Below, one piece after another: positions 1,780 to 63,000 of a stretch of DNA of 64,000 bases. This stretch comes from Candidatus Omnitrophota bacterium (lineage in GTDB: Bacteria > Omnitrophota > Omnitrophia > Omnitrophales > JACROU01). The stretch's first letter is position 1. Each line of letters starts with the position of its first letter. The notes beneath the pieces were generated by a model. The model was not told the DNA's origin and ran no database searches. It saw only the letters and a list, made by a program, of their open reading frames with translations. The stretch is from positions 130,926 to 194,925 of the forward strand of contig JAJDCD010000025.1 of assembly GCA_029261035.1 (NCBI GenBank), read 5' to 3'. A program made the position numbers and the translations under genes.

Positions 1780-1877
1780 AACATCACCTCAAAAGTCATT
1801 GCGAACGAAGTGAAGCAATCTCATGAGATCTCCATGCTCCTTATAGGAGCTCGCGATGACCATTGTCTTAGGCAAAG

Positions 1878-1944: not shown

Positions 1945-1979
1945 CCTGGATCCCCGACACAAACATTCGGGGATGACAA
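1945..1979. repeat. R1 palindromic repeat copy 3
   Basis: cctggatccccgacacaaacattcggggatgacaa, in direct orientation with copies 1 and 2 on the other side of the ETF-QO gene. Confidence 0.75.
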
Positions 1980-2048: not shown

Positions 2049-3167
2049 TCACAATAAGTATAACAGTCGATCTATATCTTTCTCATTATTGTAAAAGTGT
2101 GGGGCTACGCGTAAACCACCGCCTCTTGGAATGGAAAATATTTTTTCTTTAAATAAAGTTATAGCAGCTTTTTCTGGGTCAGACACTTTAAGAATCACAA
2201 TACCTGAACGATACTCTGGTTCTATGGGTGACAAAGCAGGGATGTTCTTCTTTTGAGCTTGCTCAATGAGATAGTCGGTGAGAAAAAGAATGCGTTCTTG
2301 AATCTCTTTTTTTCCAATAGAATCAAAATAAGAACAGGCGGCACCTAAACTAAAATAGCTTGGAAATGAAGGGCCTCCATATTCAAATCGCGAACAATTA
2401 GGATTCAAAACCGTATTCTTATTATCATATCGATCCGGATCATCCACGCTACGCCATCCAGCAAAAGATGGTTTTTTGCTTTCCAAAAGTCCTTTTCGAA
2501 TATACAAAACACCCCCTCCATAACCAGCCATCATCCACTTATAACTATTCCCCGTCATGCAATCAACGCCCATTGCTTTAACATCGATTGGGAAAGCCCC
2601 TAAAGCTTGAGAGCAGTTAACCACAAAATGTGCTTCCCGTTCTTTGGCTATTTCTGAAAGAGCTTTTAGGTCTTGTCTAAAACCTGTAGCGTATTGAACA
2701 TAACTGGAAAGAATCGTTTTAATCGAAGAGCTCCACTTCTCTTTAAAAAGTTTAGGAAGCGTTTTATTGTCTTCAGAAGATAAAAAATGCACCTTTTCCG
2801 TTTGATGAAGCCAAGGCACTGTTGAAGCGGGAAATTCCATATCGCTCATCATAACTTCCCCATCACTTTTTAGAAGATCGACAATTAAATTCATCCCCTC
2901 AGAAGTACTATGCACAAAAGCAACTTCCTCAGGGTCTGCATTGATGAATTGAGCTACATTCCTTCGAGCTTCTTCTTTGCGCTCGAGCCACTCATCCCAA
3001 ACAAAATCTCCTTGATTCAAAGACTCCTGCCAATACCCAGAAGCCGCCTCAAAAGCAGGACGAGACACTAACCCTCCAGCAGCATGATCCAAATAAACAT
3101 AATCTTTCACACTAGGAAAATCCTCTTGTCTTAATTTACCCCAATCAATCATAATACCTCCCCTCAA
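2049..3167 (-). CDS. Class V aminotransferase / cysteine desulfurase-like PLP enzyme
   Basis: 372 aa with a PLP-fold region SSYVQYATGF...CSQALGAFPIDVKAMGVDCMTGNSYKWMMAGYGGGVLYIRKG. The track start at 3167 is TTG. An ATG at 3152 (MIDWGKL) preceded by gaggggagg is the more likely start. Confidence 0.7.
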   Translation of the reverse strand: MRGGIMIDWGKLRQEDFPSVKDYVYLDHAAGGLVSRPAFEAASGYWQESLNQGDFVWDEWLERKEEARRNVAQFINADPEEVAFVHSTSEGMNLIVDLLKSDGEVMMSDMEFPASTVPWLHQTEKVHFLSSEDNKTLPKLFKEKWSSSIKTILSSYVQYATGFRQDLKALSEIAKEREAHFVVNCSQALGAFPIDVKAMGVDCMTGNSYKWMMAGYGGGVLYIRKGLLESKKPSFAGWRSVDDPDRYDNKNTVLNPNCSRFEYGGPSFPSYFSLGAACSYFDSIGKKEIQERILFLTDYLIEQAQKKNIPALSPIEPEYRSGIVILKVSDPEKAAITLFKEKIFSIPRGGGLRVAPHFYNNEKDIDRLLYLL

Positions 3168-3192
3168 AAAGCATCGTCACACATGTGACGAT
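3163..3192 (-). terminator. Palindrome atcgtcacacatgtgacgat plus U-run (minus-strand terminator/attenuator-like)
   Basis: On the minus strand the 9-bp stem is followed by gcuuuuu. It lies directly 5' of the aminotransferase RBS and 3' of the SpoU gene. A paralogous palindrome sits at 62683-62704. Confidence 0.4.
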
Positions 3193-3204
3193 ACAATATA
3201 CCTA

Positions 3205-3237
3205 GGCAAAATAAGTGCTCGATGCACTTCTTTTGCC
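3205..3237. repeat. R2 hairpin repeat (ggcaaaatAAGTGCtcgatGCACTTcttttgcc)
   Basis: 14-bp stem with 1 mismatch and a 5-nt loop. The core aaaataagtgctcgatgcactt is also at 9189-9225 and 62823-62860, and degenerate at 27339-27368. Confidence 0.75.
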
Positions 3238-3279
3238 AACCTCTCAACACTCACACTAATTTTATACCTCACAGAAAAA

Positions 3280-3352
3280 GATTGTTTTCCCGCCGCGAGT
3301 TCACAAAAATCGTATTGTATTTTTGTGCTGTCTGAGCGCCGGGAATACAATC
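3280..3352. repeat. R3 structured repeat (outer stem + GCGAGTTcacaaaa-loop-ttttgtgcTGTCTGAGC)
   Basis: gattgttttcccgccGCGAGTTcacaaaa atcgtattgtattt ttttgtgcTGTCTGAGCgccgggaatacaatc. Paralogues at 9258-9336, 27421-27492 and 62899-63000 have different loops and compensatory outer stems. Confidence 0.75.
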
Positions 3353-3375
3353 TTTTCCGACCCACCTACCTAAAA

Positions 3376-3910: not shown

Positions 3911-4360
3911 ATGGCACCTTACTTCATTAGGAGAGCAATTAATATGTTTAAAAACCCAACAATGCATTCTAAACCAGATTTCTGGCTTAACTTACCCGGA
4001 ATTGTAACAAAACTGGCTATTCTGCCCTTATCTATTTTTTTAGGCCTAATTCCCTCTATTATCTCCGGAGTACTTACAGCGTGCATTATATGTCTTTTTA
4101 GGCATATCTCTTACAAAGAATCTTTTTACAAGATTCTCAAAGGAATTTCAGAACCTACATACTTTTTTATGCTATCAGGAATTTTATGTATTTATTTCTA
4201 TATGAATACAAATTGGCAGGGGTTAATACTTATAGTAACAAACTTATTTATAGGAGAGCAGCTTTGGAATAAATTGCCTTTATGGCTTGAAAACTACTAT
4301 TGTGAGAAGGTAAATAAAACATCAAGTGTCGATCACATAAACCAAAAAATCAAAAGTTAA
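3911..4360 (+). CDS. Hypothetical membrane protein
   Basis: 149 aa with 3-4 predicted hydrophobic helices. No recognisable family. Confidence 0.3.
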   Translation: MAPYFIRRAINMFKNPTMHSKPDFWLNLPGIVTKLAILPLSIFLGLIPSIISGVLTACIICLFRHISYKESFYKILKGISEPTYFFMLSGILCIYFYMNTNWQGLILIVTNLFIGEQLWNKLPLWLENYYCEKVNKTSSVDHINQKIKS

Positions 4361-4842
4361 AAATCTTCATCATCCTCAAAACGTCCAGACAGTGTCGCCC
4401 CCCAAGTTCTACGGCCTCCATCAACAAGGTTGGGGTCCTCTTTGGTTGTTCCCCAATTAGAATTATCAACAGTTTCTGTTGTAGAGTAATCTTCCTTCTT
4501 ACGTCTTCCTGGTTTTTTGAAATCTCTTTCTGTCATTTTTTCTTCTAAAAGTTTCTCATCCACCTGCAAAGGTTGATCTACATTTCTCTTACGTCCTCTA
4601 GTTTTCTTTTCTGTAACTTCCTTTACCTTCACTTTATTAACAGATACAGTTTTCTTAACCCCTTTCGAAGAAGTTTTCTTCTTAGACAGAGAGGTCTTCT
4701 TTTCAACCTTTTTCTTAGCAATTTTTTTCTTGGAAGCCTTGGGTTTAACGACAGATCTCTTCTTAGAAGCCTTTTTCTTAACAGCTTTTTTCTTTCTTAC
4801 AGGGGAAGACTTTGCTTTTTTTTTCTTAGCCATAAAGATCAC
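4357..4842 (-). CDS. Lysine-rich basic (histone H1-like) protein with an acidic C-terminal tail
   Basis: 161 aa. The N-terminal ~70 aa are K-rich (KKKASKKRSVVKPKASKKKIAKKK). The C-terminus ends ...GRFEDDEDF. Confidence 0.5.
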   Translation of the reverse strand: MIFMAKKKKAKSSPVRKKKAVKKKASKKRSVVKPKASKKKIAKKKVEKKTSLSKKKTSSKGVKKTVSVNKVKVKEVTEKKTRGRKRNVDQPLQVDEKLLEEKMTERDFKKPGRRKKEDYSTTETVDNSNWGTTKEDPNLVDGGRRTWGATLSGRFEDDEDF

Positions 4843-4878
4843 CTCTTATGCGGATATCTCAATATAAGTATAAATAGA

Positions 4879-4914
4879 AAAGGATATGGAGCCTTTAAAA
4901 ACCCCATATCCTTT
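4879..4914 (-). terminator. Rho-independent terminator of the Hc2-like gene
   Basis: Perfect 11-bp stem aaaggatatgg/ccatatccttt followed on the minus strand by a U-rich tract (ucuauuuauacuua). It lies 3' of the stop at 4963. Confidence 0.5.
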
Positions 4915-4962
4915 ATAAAAAACCCAACAAGCGATTGATTTATTAATAAGCAAATCCGTTTA

Positions 4963-5184
4963 TTATTTTCTTTTCTTTTTTGTAGCTTTTTTCTTTGCTT
5001 TTTTCTTAGCTGGCTTTTTCTTAGCAGCTTTTTTCTTTGCTTTCTTTTTTGCTTTTTTCTTAGCAGCCTTTTTCTTAGCAGCCTTTTTCTTTGCTTTTTT
5101 CTTAGCTGGTTTTCTTGCTACTTTTCTTTTCTTAGTAGCTTTTTTCTTACCAGCTTTTTTCTTTGCTTTTTTCTTTGCAGCCAT
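4963..5184 (-). CDS. Histone H1-like / Hc2-like lysine-alanine repeat DNA-binding protein
   Basis: 73 aa made almost entirely of AKKKA/KKAAK pentapeptide repeats. The DNA is a tandem ~15-nt repeat (gcttttttcttagca). Composition matches chlamydial Hc2 / AlgP-type histone-like proteins. Confidence 0.7.
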   Translation of the reverse strand: MAAKKKAKKKAGKKKATKKRKVARKPAKKKAKKKAAKKKAAKKKAKKKAKKKAAKKKPAKKKAKKKATKKKRK

Positions 5185-5610
5185 TGTTAACTCCTTCCCT
5201 CATCCTGAGGTTAAGTTAATGAACCTACTATTAATGAATCATCGCTTTATTAGGTTTAGTTTTCAAAAAACATTTACTTTCGACTTTACTCTCAAAAATG
5301 CGAGATATTCTACTTCGAAAGTTTGTACTCTTATTAACGGAATAATATATCTATTCCTTTATAAAATATTTTACCACTTCATTCTAGTGAATTACAAGTA
5401 TTAATCGCATTTTTTTAAAAAAAGATTATTTATTTTTTTGCGAGAGAAATTATTTTTGTTTAAATTAAAAATATTTTTTTGAATTTTAGTTTTAAAATTT
5501 GTTTTTTCTCTTTTTTTTTCATAGCATTTTAAACTTTTGGTTTTAATTTTTATCAGCGTATTAAAAAATAAAACATTAGATTAACTCTCTCTACCCTATA
5601 ACAATGTGAG
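5185..5610. promoter_or_regulatory. Very AT-rich 425-bp divergent intergenic region
   Basis: Long A/T tracts lie between the Hc2-like gene on the minus strand and the lipoprotein gene on the plus strand. This is probably promoter DNA. Confidence 0.35.
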
Positions 5611-9188: not shown

Positions 9189-9225
9189 ATAATAAAATAA
9201 GTGCTCGATGCACTTCTTTTATTAT
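9189..9225. repeat. R2 hairpin repeat copy
   Basis: ataataaaatAAGTGCtcgatGCACTTcttttattat. Same core as 3205-3237 with a different, compensating outer stem. Confidence 0.7.
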
Positions 9226-9257
9226 CTCCCTTCTCCCCACCCAAGTCTACACAAACA

Positions 9258-9336
9258 AGAAAAAGGGAATGCCTCCACTGCGAGTTGCGGAGGCCTTTGG
9301 CCGAGCATGTCTGAGCAGTGGAGGCATTCCCTTTTT
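9258..9336. terminator. R3 repeat copy acting as a bidirectional intrinsic terminator
   Basis: Perfect 22-bp outer stem gaaaaagggaatgcctccactg/cagtggaggcattccctttttc encloses GCGAGTT...TGTCTGAGC. T-runs flank it on both strands, between convergent genes 8672-9175 (+) and 9375-10559 (-). Confidence 0.65.
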
Positions 9337-9374
9337 CGCCACAACTTATAATCTTTTCTACTCACCTTAACAAA

Positions 9375-18390: not shown

Positions 18391-18494
18391 AGCGGATAGC
18401 GCATAGCGTTTAGCGTATAGAAAAACAAAAAAACGCTTCATCTGTCTTTTTGACAAATGTCCCTATACGCTCCACGCTAAACGCTCTACGCTAT
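18391..18494. repeat. Inverted heptad array (AGCGNNT x4 / NNACGCT x4) forming a long hairpin in the nuoCD-nuoH spacer
   Basis: agcggatagcgcatagcgtttagcgtatag ...40-nt loop... ctatacgctccacgctaaacgctctacgctatcg. A related direct copy tagcgtttagcgtagagcgtatag is at 62637-62662. Confidence 0.6.
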
Positions 18495-20104
18495 CGATCT
18501 ATATCCGGTACAACGATATCTAAACTTCCTAAAACACAAACGGCATCCGCCAACAAGTTTCCTCGGACAACCTCTTTCATAACATTCATATTTGAATAAC
18601 AAGGAGTTCTCATCTTAATTCGATATGGATTTTCAGTACCATCGCTAATCAGATAGATTCCCATCTGACCTCTTGGAGACTCTACAGAAAAATAATACTC
18701 TCCTGCCTCCGGTTTAAATCGTTTTGGAGCATCCGGGTTGTTATAAGGGCCTTCCGGAATCTTAGCTAAGGCCTGTTCCAAGATACTTAAGCTTTGCCAC
18801 ATCTCTTCAACACGAACTTCATAACGACTATAAGCATCGCCGGCTGTGGCTGTAGGGATATCAAATTTAAATTGATTATAAATCCCGTACGGTTCGTTTT
18901 TACGAACATCGTATTCCACACCACAAGCTCTAAGAGGAGCTCCTGTAACTCCATAAGAAATTGCCTGTTCTTTGGTAATCACACCCACACCCTGAGTTCG
19001 TTTCTGAAATATAATATTTTTAGTTATCAGTGTTTCATAATCCTTAAGATTAGCCCTTAACATAGGAATAAATTTGCGAGCACGCTCTATGAATTCTGGA
19101 GACAAATCTCTTTCTTGTCCCCCAAACCGAAAGTAGTTGTAGGTTAAACGACTTCCGTCACACATCTCAAACATCGTTAAAATTTCTTCTCGGTCCTGAA
19201 AACAATAAAGAAATGGAGTAAAACTACCCAAGTCCATTAAAAAAGCTCCGTACCATAGCAGGTGACTTGCAAGACGTTGTAATTCAGAAACAATAATACG
19301 AATGTATTCCGCTCTTTCCGTAATCGTAATACCTAAAGCCCGTTCAACCGTTCCCACATAACCCCAGTTATAAATCATACCCGCCAAATAATCGACACGA
19401 CTTGGATATGGGGTCCATTGCAAATAATTTCCATTTTCAGCCATCTTCTCATCTGCTCGATGAGCATAACCTACAACTGGCTCCAAATCTAAAATAGTCT
19501 CCCCATCCATCTTAAGCAACAACCTCAGCACCCCATGCGTACTTGGATGTTGAGGCCCCAAATTAACAAAATATTCTTGTTCGTCCGAAACCAAGCTCTT
19601 ATCACTTACTTGTTGGTTTGCGTTAGATTCTAATTCCCAAGCCCTATTTACATCTTCAATAGAATCACCCTCAAATTTAAAACCTTTCCTAAGAGGATGA
19701 AAGTCCGAATATTCAGGAAGCAATAAACGTTTTAAGTTAGGATGATTCTTAAACTTAATTCCATACATATCATAAGCTTCTCTTTCATACCAATTCGCAC
19801 CCCGATAAACTTGTGAAATACTAGGAACCTCTTCGGTCCATTCTTGCTTTAATCGAACAACCACACGAAGAAGACCTTCGAAACGGTTAAACTGATACGC
19901 TAACAAAAAGTTTTCGCCAAAATCTGCAGCTGTAATGTTTTCTAGAAAAAAGTCTGCTTTCAGCATCACTTGAGCAACAGCAATCAATTTGTCTTGAGTG
20001 GTTTCAACTTCAAAATGAAATCCTGTTTTACTATAATCACTCACAACAGAAGTTTCTGGATTTACTAAACTAGTGAGTTGTGATTTGATTTCCTCGACTG
20101 TCAT
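18491..20104 (-). CDS. nuoCD: NADH-quinone oxidoreductase fused subunit C/D
   Basis: 537 aa. The N-terminal 30-kDa NuoC part is fused to the 49-kDa NuoD part (…HPSTHGVLRL…). It is followed directly by nuoH, with no nuoE/F/G between. Confidence 0.85.
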   Translation of the reverse strand: MTVEEIKSQLTSLVNPETSVVSDYSKTGFHFEVETTQDKLIAVAQVMLKADFFLENITAADFGENFLLAYQFNRFEGLLRVVVRLKQEWTEEVPSISQVYRGANWYEREAYDMYGIKFKNHPNLKRLLLPEYSDFHPLRKGFKFEGDSIEDVNRAWELESNANQQVSDKSLVSDEQEYFVNLGPQHPSTHGVLRLLLKMDGETILDLEPVVGYAHRADEKMAENGNYLQWTPYPSRVDYLAGMIYNWGYVGTVERALGITITERAEYIRIIVSELQRLASHLLWYGAFLMDLGSFTPFLYCFQDREEILTMFEMCDGSRLTYNYFRFGGQERDLSPEFIERARKFIPMLRANLKDYETLITKNIIFQKRTQGVGVITKEQAISYGVTGAPLRACGVEYDVRKNEPYGIYNQFKFDIPTATAGDAYSRYEVRVEEMWQSLSILEQALAKIPEGPYNNPDAPKRFKPEAGEYYFSVESPRGQMGIYLISDGTENPYRIKMRTPCYSNMNVMKEVVRGNLLADAVCVLGSLDIVVPDIDR

Positions 20105-27154: not shown

Positions 27155-27304
27155 AACACACCCTCAATCTATAGCCATTAGCCATTAACTTCAACCGCCA
27201 GAAGCGGTCCGCTATCTTTACAGCGGATTCTAAATCCTAAACAAACACATCACCATAAACAACGCCTTCATCCCCAACCTAATCAAACCGCTAACAACAA
27301 AACG

Positions 27305-27333
27305 CGTTTCGTTATGAATACCATAACGAAACA
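27305..27333. repeat. R5 hairpin repeat (gtttcgttatN-loop-NataacgaaaC)
   Basis: Perfect 11-bp stem gtttcgttatg/cataacgaaac. A paralogue with the same stem and a different loop is at 62787-62814. Confidence 0.65.
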
Positions 27334-27338
27334 CCTTA

Positions 27339-27368
27339 AACCCCAGAAACAATATGGGCTCGATGCCA
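27339..27368. repeat. Degenerate R2 copy
   Basis: aaatatgggctcgatgccatcttgttt versus R2 core aaataagtgctcgatgcacttctttt. Confidence 0.45.
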
Positions 27369-27420
27369 TCTTGTTTCAACCCCTAACACACTATCAAGCG
27401 TTCAGAACTTAAAGGAAAAT

Positions 27421-27492
27421 AAAATGTTCCCGCCGCGAGTTCACAAAAATCGTTCCTCAATTTTTGTGCTGTCTGAGCGCCGGGAACATTTT
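27421..27492. repeat. R3 structured repeat copy
   Basis: aaaatgttcccgccGCGAGTTcacaaaa atcgttcctcaattt ttgtgcTGTCTGAGCgccgggaacatttt. Perfect 12-bp outer stem with compensatory changes relative to copy 3280-3352. Confidence 0.75.
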
Positions 27493-27524
27493 ATTTTCCT
27501 CTCACCCACATCCACGCTCCAAAC

Positions 27525-62682: not shown

Positions 62683-62704
62683 GATCGTCACACACGTGAC
62701 GATA
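62683..62704. repeat. Palindrome atcgtcacacacgtgacgat (paralogue of 3173-3192)
   Basis: Same palindrome as 3173-3192 with one substitution. Confidence 0.55.
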
Positions 62705-62786: not shown

Positions 62787-62814
62787 GTTTCGTTATTTAG
62801 ACCAATAACGAAAC
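62787..62814. repeat. R5 hairpin repeat copy
   Basis: gtttcgttatt-tagacc-aataacgaaac, same stem as 27305-27333. Confidence 0.65.
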
Positions 62815-62822
62815 TCATTACA

Positions 62823-62860
62823 CCCAGGCAAAATAAGTGCTCGATGCACTTATTTTGGCA
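62823..62860. repeat. R2 hairpin repeat copy
   Basis: cccaggcaaaatAAGTGCtcgatGCACTTattttggcaaccc. Confidence 0.7.
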
Positions 62861-62898
62861 ACCCTCCACACCCCCCACTTGTATTAAAACACTTCAGG

Positions 62899-63000
62899 AG
62901 GAGGAAGGAATATTCCCCGCCGCGAGTTCACAAAAGGGACAGTCCCCAATGGGGACAATCCCTTTTGTGCTGTCTGAGCGCTGGGGAATATTCCTTCCGA
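62899..63000. repeat. R3 structured repeat copy with an inserted inner hairpin
   Basis: Perfect 16-bp outer stem ggaaggaatattcccc/ggggaatattccttcc encloses GCGAGTTcacaaaa, an inner hairpin gggacagtcccc-aat-ggggacaatccc, and ttttgtgcTGTCTGAGC. Confidence 0.75.

Follow-up and report, generated by a model that had tools for sequence, protein, structure and literature searches.

BOX in Streptococcus pneumoniae (boxA-boxB-boxC), ERIC/IRU in enterobacteria and Correia in Neisseria are modular or long imperfect-palindrome intergenic repeats of 100-200 nucleotides (nt) that fold as RNA, lie between cistrons or in 3' positions, vary in presence from strain to strain and lack a transposase of their own. 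Repetitive extragenic palindromic (REP) sequences and bacterial interspersed mosaic elements (BIMEs) are described in PMC3733652 as extragenic hairpins that lie between unidirectional or convergent genes, in most cases 3' of the coding region; REPs form ordered mosaics together with other motifs, and they are considered to be mobile and to act as RNA hairpins. Here we describe R3, a hairpin element found at four intergenic sites of a 64-kb stretch of DNA from a Candidatus Omnitrophota bacterium (contig JAJDCD010000025.1, positions 130,926 to 194,925; "the window" below means this whole stretch of 64,000 nt), where it follows a smaller hairpin, R2, and a C-rich linker. We tentatively read R3, at somewhat less than an even chance, as an undescribed family of non-autonomous, insertion-polymorphic hairpins that resembles REP/BIME, ERIC and BOX elements and is recognised in single-stranded form through its loop. 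The Omnitrophota are uncultured, and to our knowledge nothing is known of their non-coding elements.

A composite repeat at four intergenic sites

An earlier reading of the window, made from the letters alone (the sequence-only reading), had reported four intergenic loci that carry R2, a C/A-rich linker and R3 in this order on the plus strand. This observation is real: the composite unit is 150-170 nt long and has the same orientation at all four sites (Table 1). The repeat is also statistically solid. The window contains exactly four occurrences of the R2 loop motif GCTCGATGC (at 3217, 9203, 27358, and 62839) against 0.16 expected, a count that was reached in 0 of 100 shuffles, and TGTCTGAGC is located exactly at the four R3 sites (3329, 9308, 27470, and 62971). 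A covariance model of R3 scored the window copies at 55.8-80.4 bits (E-values of 1e-11 to 1e-17), while the best unrelated match in the window had 12.8 bits and the only higher ones were the reverse strands of the same hairpins. Folding also agreed with the proposed layout, in that R2 and R3 form separate hairpins and the linker is unpaired, with z = -7.6 and -9.3 for two whole units. Chance similarity or an assembly artefact is hardly conceivable: it is contradicted by the E-values, and it is further countered by the recurrence of the core in independent assemblies from other samples and by a Logan assembly of another run that reproduces locus 1. The range first given for this locus, 3163-3352, includes a separate palindrome, R1, as well.

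Covariation and conservation in the R3 hairpin

R3 is 70-125 nt long across the family; the window copies span 79-96 nt, and that of contig L030 reaches about 125 nt (L numbers denote contigs outside the window, and W1 to W4 the window copies at loci 1 to 4). The stems had been interpreted as maintained by compensatory change, and the wider family bears this out. Of the 25 stem pairs, 23 had changes on both sides among 11 copies (19 in a hand-made alignment), and 91% of stem cells were paired, compared with 64% in column shuffles and 33-47% in slid controls. Only the two closing pairs of the loop, G-C and C-G, did not vary among the 11 copies. Judged by this covariation, the R3 hairpin is under selection. 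The asymmetric loop itself (5' GAGUU, 3' (C/A)UGU(C/U)UGA) is invariant or nearly so in DNA of 37-67% GC, and a mismatch (C-C or A-G/G-A) usually lies three pairs below it; a C-C mismatch three pairs from the loop is common to W1, W3, and W4. As the centre (loop and clamp) is conserved and the arms are free, we read the pattern as pointing to a trans-acting factor that recognises a folded single strand.

Several motifs had been described too strictly. The R3 motifs GCGAGTTCACAAAA and TTTTGTGCTGTCTGAGC, called invariant, are present at loci 1, 3, and 4, but locus 2 has GCGAGTTGCGGAGG...GCATGTCTGAGC instead, which leaves GCGAGTT and TGTCTGAGC as the invariant parts among the window copies of R3. 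These motifs were also taken to be single-stranded, which is correct for GAGUU and CUGUCUGA, the two sides of the internal loop, but not for CAC(AAAA)/(UUUU)GUG, which is the inner helix. The outer stems, reported as perfectly complementary, depart from this in two copies, with a U-U mismatch in W1 and a G-U pair in W4. The U-runs seen after R3 exist, but they pair with the A-runs before it and are therefore part of the stem. Similarly, the R2 core AAAATAAGTGCTCGATGCACTT holds at loci 1, 2, and 4, but because locus 3 reads ACAATATGGGCTCGATGCCATC, only GCTCGATGC is truly invariant in R2.

Both strands of R3 fold about equally well, and folding energy was rejected for this reason as a means of choosing the strand. 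Wobble pairs favour the strand that carries the motif (the plus strand in the window), with 7 G-U against 2 A-C pairs, and the single loop substitution seen, from C to U in the L030 copy, makes a G-U of a predicted G-C pair on that strand. This evidence for the motif strand is suggestive but thin.

Copies in other genomes and empty orthologous sites

The 23-nt core GCGAGTTCAC...GTGCTGTCTGAGC was found in five contigs of a species-representative genome set and in one metagenome contig. Three of the five genome contigs are labelled Omnitrophota. Contig L002 (DYOU01000035.1) bears the name 'Candidatus Elulimicrobium sp.', yet its PGM shares 80-87% identity with Omnitrophica proteins and its gene order is common with Omnitrophica relatives; on this comparison the label or the binning looks wrong, and a spread across phyla to 'Elulimicrobium' is ruled out by the PGM identity. 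L001, by contrast, is a genuine Fibrobacteria contig, with XseA relatives that are consistently named Fibrobacteria or Fibrobacter. The R3 model identified one more, diverged copy in L030 (41 bits), with the core UGCGAGUU-UGGAAAC...GUUUCCA-CUGUUUGAGCA, and because exact-pattern scans would miss this copy, the family is wider than those scans show. The copies found lie mainly in Omnitrophota genomes, with at least one in Fibrobacteria.

The proximal outer stems are alike at unrelated loci in L002-L005 and L030 (GGCAUAUC..UGCGAG), as can be expected for one element spreading through different genomes. Neither R2 nor the C-rich linker lies beside R3 in any of the copies outside the window genome. 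About 120 kb of Omnitrophota relatives contained one R3 copy (that of L030) compared with four in the 64-kb window, and 29 kb of Fibrobacteria relatives of L001 contained none. The strict R3 core had 0 matches in IMG/VR, and the 7 matches to two relaxed cores there were all due to chance according to the model (at most 16 bits, no hairpin), so the element is, by this search, not phage-borne. BLAST searches against plasmid and phage collections gave no match.

Relatives provide a view of the same sites without the element, and all four sites that could be tested, two in the window and two elsewhere, are empty in them. SpoU and SufS, which are 223 nt apart at locus 1, are 53 nt apart in L018 (a contig that keeps the window gene order from ETF-QO to the Nuo genes) and overlap in L031 and L032, and GT and SNase, 199 nt apart at locus 2, are 10 nt apart in L018 and overlap in L031. 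Outside the window, the distance from PGM to the acyltransferase gene is 201 nt in L002 and 38, 36, and 7 nt in L028, L029, and L030, respectively (relatives of L002 share 81-87% identical PGM), while the aldehyde dehydrogenase and CTP-transferase genes are separated by about 140 nt in L030, nearly all of it one hairpin, and overlap in L028 and L029. Because the sites of the relatives are empty, the element must have been gained or lost at single intergenic sites, including operon junctions. Where it separates genes that overlap in relatives, it marks sites of rebuilt operon structure.

R3 as a possible mobile hairpin

The sequence-only reading had offered three roles, namely a terminator or 3'-untranslated element, a multi-copy small RNA, and a BOX/Correia-like miniature mobile element. 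The last fits best, given that relatives lack the element at each of the four sites that could be tested. On our tentative reading, a folded single strand (single-stranded DNA or RNA) would be recognised through the invariant loop by a factor encoded elsewhere, and this recognition would lead to the element being copied to new intergenic sites. R3 would have been joined to R2 and the C-rich linker in the window genome, and the composite placed there at four or more sites. After insertion, the long hairpin, which in the AT-rich window genome is bracketed by A- and U-tracts, would probably act as an RNA structure affecting termination or mRNA stability. We infer that the element moves in trans, that a protein recognises the loop, which strand acts, and that transcripts are affected. 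No transposase or reverse-transcriptase domain, and no Y1 transposase domain, was found among the scanned open reading frames (ORFs) of the window, which comprise nearly all minus-strand ORFs of at least 80 amino acids and the main plus-strand ORFs; the absence of the former two fits a non-autonomous element.

Several points weigh against a mobile hairpin. An invariant loop with free arms is the reverse of what is found in miniature inverted-repeat transposable elements (MITEs), where conservation lies in the terminal repeats, and it is atypical of REPs too. The distal outer stems vary from copy to copy while keeping their pairing, which is not accounted for by simply copying a fixed unit. A mobilising gene was not found among the window ORFs scanned, and no target-site duplication or clean boundary is visible, as filled and empty intergenic regions do not align. 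The model search of related genomes covered about 190 kb, the wobble pairs are few, and two of the copies, L003 and L005, are related to each other. Moreover, the strand favoured by wobble pairs is C-rich and would not be the exposed lagging-strand template if GC skew (-0.2 on the plus strand) marks the direction of replication, which argues against an IS200/IS605-like route through single-stranded DNA.

We also considered that R3 might be a new structured motif whose loop would serve as active site or as handle in a mechanism not yet described, either a small self-cleaving RNA or the recognition hairpin of a single-strand-specific mobilising enzyme that crosses between Omnitrophota and Fibrobacterota, which we judge improbable. 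If the element is mobile, its conservation pattern points to folded-single-strand recognition by an enzyme, and if it is a host RNA, it would be a new protein-binding or regulatory motif. The analysis yields a covariation-backed motif absent from Rfam, an 11-sequence seed alignment, and a working covariance model.

Table 1. Positions of the composite repeat and of other features in the window.
Feature	Position	Strand	Details
R2, copy 1 (W1)	3205-3237	+	GGCAAAA-U-AAGUGC-UCGAU-GCACUU-C-UUUUGCC; from sequence, loop motif, and fold
Linker, copy 1	3238-3275	+	C 0.34, G 0.03; unpaired in fold
R3, copy 1	3276-3356	+	arms 3276-3296 / 3336-3356; 74.3 bits; internal loop GAGUU/CUGUCUGA; inner stem CACAAAAAU/AUUUUUGUG in folds
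R2, copy 2 (W2)	9189-9225	+	arms 9189-9204 / 9210-9225; from fold
Linker, copy 2	9226-9258	+	C 0.48, G 0.03
R3, copy 2	9259-9337	+	arms 9259-9281 / 9315-9337, 100% complementary; 55.8 bits; core variant GCGAGUU-GC..GC-AUGUCUGAGC
R2, copy 3 (W3)	27346-27377	+	diverged stem GAAACAA..AUG(G)GC-UCGAU-GCCAU..UUGUUUC; from loop motif and alignment
Linker, copy 3	27378-27412	+	C 0.33, G 0.09
R3, copy 3	27413-27500	+	arms 27413-27436 / 27477-27500; 80.4 bits
R2, copy 4 (W4)	62827-62859	+	from sequence; direct-repeat families D7 and D8
Linker, copy 4	62860-62902	+	C 0.39, G 0.12
R3, copy 4	62903-62998	+	arms 62903-62923 / 62978-62998 and 62929-62948 / 62950-62969; 75.3 bits; inner stem-loop extended (GGGACAGUCCCCAAUGGGGACAAUCCC)
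R1 palindrome	3171-3194		CGTCACAC(A/C)(T/C)GTGACG
R1 palindrome	62684-62703		CGTCACAC(A/C)(T/C)GTGACG
H hairpin	27304-27334		GTTTCGTTAT-loop-ATAACGAAAC
H hairpin	62787-62814		GTTTCGTTAT-loop-ATAACGAAAC
Small hairpins	9-34, 82-111, 1948-1977	-	GTCATCCCCGA-loop-CGGGGATCC; gene-sense orientation
Small hairpins	1797-1825		GTCATTGCGA...GCAATC type; gene-sense orientation
Very long hairpin	18391-18495		intergenic, just after a gene
Basic ORF	4963-5184	-	73 amino acids, MAAKKKAKKKAGKKK...; Lys/Ala-rich
Basic ORF	4357-4842	-	161 amino acids; Lys/Ala-rich
Tandem DNA repeats	4695-5193

R2, the linker and a small RNA alternative

R2 is 32-37 nt in size, which is inside the size range of REP palindromes (20-40 bp). 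The linker that joins it to R3 measures 33-43 nt in all four copies and contains 33-48% C and 3-12% G, compared with 21% C and 15% G in the intergenic DNA of the window overall; this C excess and G deficit rule out that it merely reflects background composition. An R2-like hairpin with a covarying basal stem (CAUUAAA-U-AAGUGCUCGAUGCACUU-C-UUUAAUG) also lies at 449-482 of L016 (IMG/VR 3300032011_004599), preceded by a small hairpin as at window loci 3 and 4, within an ORF-poor 2 kb (1-2000) that is packed with nested inverted repeats.

The unit might alternatively encode a multi-copy, trans-acting small RNA (sRNA) on the plus strand, with R2 as its 5' hairpin, the linker as a seed for G-rich ribosome-binding sites (through CAACCUCU, CCCUCC, and CUCCCUUCUCCCC), and R3 with its U's as a terminator. 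A hairpin, an unpaired C-rich linker, and a long hairpin with U's are the usual layout of an anti-Shine-Dalgarno sRNA, and the unusual linker composition as well as the wobble pairs on the plus strand would agree with it. The plus strand is certainly transcribed at locus 2, as the 3' region of the SNase gene, and the terminator-like hairpin that follows R3 on the motif strand in L004, antisense to both neighbours, could be taken as another sign of such a transcript. We nevertheless consider an sRNA unlikely, as R3 occurs without R2 or the C-rich linker in all other genomes, and the conserved part is therefore not the putative seed. In scans of the window loci and other contigs, promoter-like matches were at chance level, and none was present at locus 3, L002, or L005. 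The copies of L003 and L030 are in sense orientation between genes, and insertion polymorphism inside operon junctions would be unusual for sRNA genes. The L004 hairpin is small, carries a U-tract, and is located at 3970-3989 (minus), downstream of R3 by 17 nt. A transcript of the motif strand may be hinted at by it, but the count of such sites there is within chance.

Gene context and transcript ends

The genes of the window are nearly all on the minus strand and have housekeeping functions, including ETF-QO, a SufS-like desulfurase, a SpoU methylase, DinB, LexA, the Nuo complex, CdaA, cellulose synthase subunits, HU, and others. The named relatives of the SufS-like protein are all "Candidatus Omnitrophica/Omnitrophota". 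Loci 1, 3, and 4 lie between tandem minus-strand genes, while locus 2 lies between convergent genes, so that its plus-strand form is the 3' region of the plus-strand SNase gene. The distance from R3 to the stop codon of the minus-strand ORF is 19, 37, 24, and 24 nt at loci 1-4. The flanking genes are unrelated housekeeping genes at every copy, and an association with particular genes was rejected. Orientation was also rejected as a strict rule: seven copies are antisense to the neighbouring genes (W1, W3, W4, L001, L002, L004, and L005), two are sense (L003 and L030) and one is between convergent genes (W2), and the antisense bias is not significant.

With R3 beginning 19-37 nt past stop codons, it might be asked whether it acts in cis at the gene ends of the minus-strand mRNAs. 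In that case R3, R2, R1, and a further hairpin, H, would in reverse complement be stacked intrinsic terminators or 3'-end stabilisers for the upstream genes, acting in both directions at locus 2. U-tracts do follow R3 on the gene-sense strand at loci 1-3, and minus-strand terminator-like sites in R1, R2, and H number 2, 3, 1, and 4 at loci 1-4, compared with 0.2-0.4 expected, in a scan that does not score stems or loops as long as those of R3. The equal folding of both strands and the long hairpins that commonly follow genes in this clade point the same way. Hairpins with a direct U-tract, however, are present on both strands at loci 1-3 and absent at locus 4, in L001-L006, and in L030, and a terminator needs no invariant 5/8-nt internal loop. 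At locus 1 the element lies between SpoU and SufS, which overlap in relatives, and only 19 nt separate the end of the R1 hairpin from the SufS start codon; termination that was efficient there would shut off SufS, which is co-transcribed in relatives. The L030 copy lies inside an operon junction and has no U-tract, and the wobble pairs favour the opposite strand. We therefore regard a gene-end element as decidedly unlikely. The terminator role suggested in the sequence-only reading is apparently not a property of the family, since GC-rich homologues lack the U-tract and both L030 and window locus 1 are inside junctions that are overlapping or tightly spaced in relatives.

The loop and known RNA motifs

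That R3 matches no known family, as had been suspected, was upheld with Rfam 15, which at gathering thresholds gave no hits in the window and L001-L005. At E-values of up to 10, the best matches were PyrR (24 bits, with 54 needed) and lactis-plasmid (19 bits, with 70 needed), and the rest were microRNA hairpin models. Literature searches with the core sequences returned unrelated primers only, and topic searches returned general REP papers and nothing on Omnitrophota repeats.

The conservation of the loop raises the question of whether R3 is a new class of structured RNA, in which a conserved cellular protein would bind the loop, or the loop would be a catalytic core, with horizontal spread and with its repeat behaviour being secondary. 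The 17 invariant or near-invariant loop and clamp nucleotides, flanked by fully covarying helices in two phyla and in DNA of widely differing GC content, are what such a class would show, as is the lack of an Rfam match. By sequence reading, a CUGA box that directly precedes a helix, with possible tandem G-A pairs opposite the box and beside the outer stem, recalls kink-turn (K-turn) and box C/D or loop-E protein sites. The K-turn layout failed, however. In the strands CGC-GA-GUU-CAC / GUG-CUGUCU-GA-GCG, three extra nucleotides (GUU) stand between the GA and the inner helix, the bulge is 6 nt rather than 3, and the 5' strand has no 3-nt bulge before the GA; no Rfam family of the C/D or K-turn-bearing kind rose above noise. 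R3 is also predicted to be a plain hairpin with no junction or pseudoknot, it has no consistent gene association, and its copies are dispensable at orthologous sites. Such a class is, in our view, quite improbable. The self-cleaving ribozymes (hammerhead, twister, twister-sister, pistol, hatchet, hairpin, and hepatitis delta virus) were rejected as candidates, as none of their models matched even at E-values of up to 10 and R3 appears unbranched.

Other repeats and features of the window

Besides R2 and R3, the window contains further hairpins (Table 1). The R1 palindrome has two copies compared with 0.02 expected. At locus 1 it is followed on the gene-sense strand by UUUUU, the whole ending 19 nt before the SufS start codon. 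R1 starts with CGTC, like the CGTC-tagged REP superfamily (PMC3733652), but in R1 the CGTC is inside the stem. H is located directly 5' of R2 at loci 3 and 4 and scores as terminator-like on the minus strand.

The GTCATCCCCGA-type hairpins look like a second, widespread repeat class; GTCATTGCGA-type hairpins lie near them, and small hairpins of the same style are found in relatives (L018 6700-6930 and L028 11428-11460). Very long intergenic hairpins just after genes occur in L032 (15420-15545 and 18435-18515) and L018 (18250-18335) as well as in the window, all with arms composed of tandem units of about 7 nt (TAGCGNA, CGTATAT, or GCGAATT) that differ per genome. Two basic ORFs, neither with a Pfam match, account for the tandem DNA repeats listed in the table.

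Comparison with known families

Some described hairpins could be set aside directly. The integron attC site carries RYYYAAC at the 5' and GTTRRRY at the 3' end, whereas the conserved bases of R3 are central and its GTT is in the 5' half, and no integrase or cassette array is found at the copies. The hammerhead core, sarcin-ricin/loop E, signal recognition particle RNA domain IV, group II intron domain V, and a dif-like forked hairpin were each a misfit when read against the alignment.

Bidirectional intrinsic terminators share with window loci 1-3 an A-tract, a GC-clamped hairpin, and a U-tract after stop codons. The stems of R3 are far longer, at about 25-45 bp in total, the invariant loop would be unexplained, GC-rich homologues have no U-tract, and some copies are inside operon junctions. 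MITEs resemble R3 in the presence/absence polymorphism, which was seen at four of four testable orthologous sites, but the distal arms of R3 differ completely between copies and only the 6-20 bp proximal to the loop are common. With the palindrome-associated transposable elements (PATEs) derived from IS200/IS605 and their subterminal hairpins, the points in common are two hairpins with a spacer and a fixed orientation; PATEs also make no target duplication and are recognised as a folded single strand with conserved irregularities, as may hold for R3. No TnpA or TnpB is nearby, however, the wobble pairs favour a strand other than the expected lagging-strand template, and outside the window genome R3 stands alone, without a second end.

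BOX, ERIC, and Correia elements have no sequence similarity to R3, and in them the whole element or the terminal repeats are conserved, whereas here this holds only for the central loop and the proximal stem. REPs are much shorter (20-40 bp against 70-125 nt) and carry an unpaired GTAG or CGTC tag, while the flanks of R2 and R3 vary and share no tag, and R3 has a conserved internal loop with free arms. REP/BIME elements are mobilised by RAYT transposases, and no RAYT was seen in the 64-kb window. The likeness to them lies in arrangement and position. The window copies are extragenic, three between tandem minus-strand genes and one between convergent genes, and R1, H, R2, the linker, and R3 form an ordered mosaic that, together with the GTCATCCCCGA-type hairpins, is BIME-like. 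R3 is an undescribed element that we could assign to no named family, and we place it with the intergenic stem-loop repeats.

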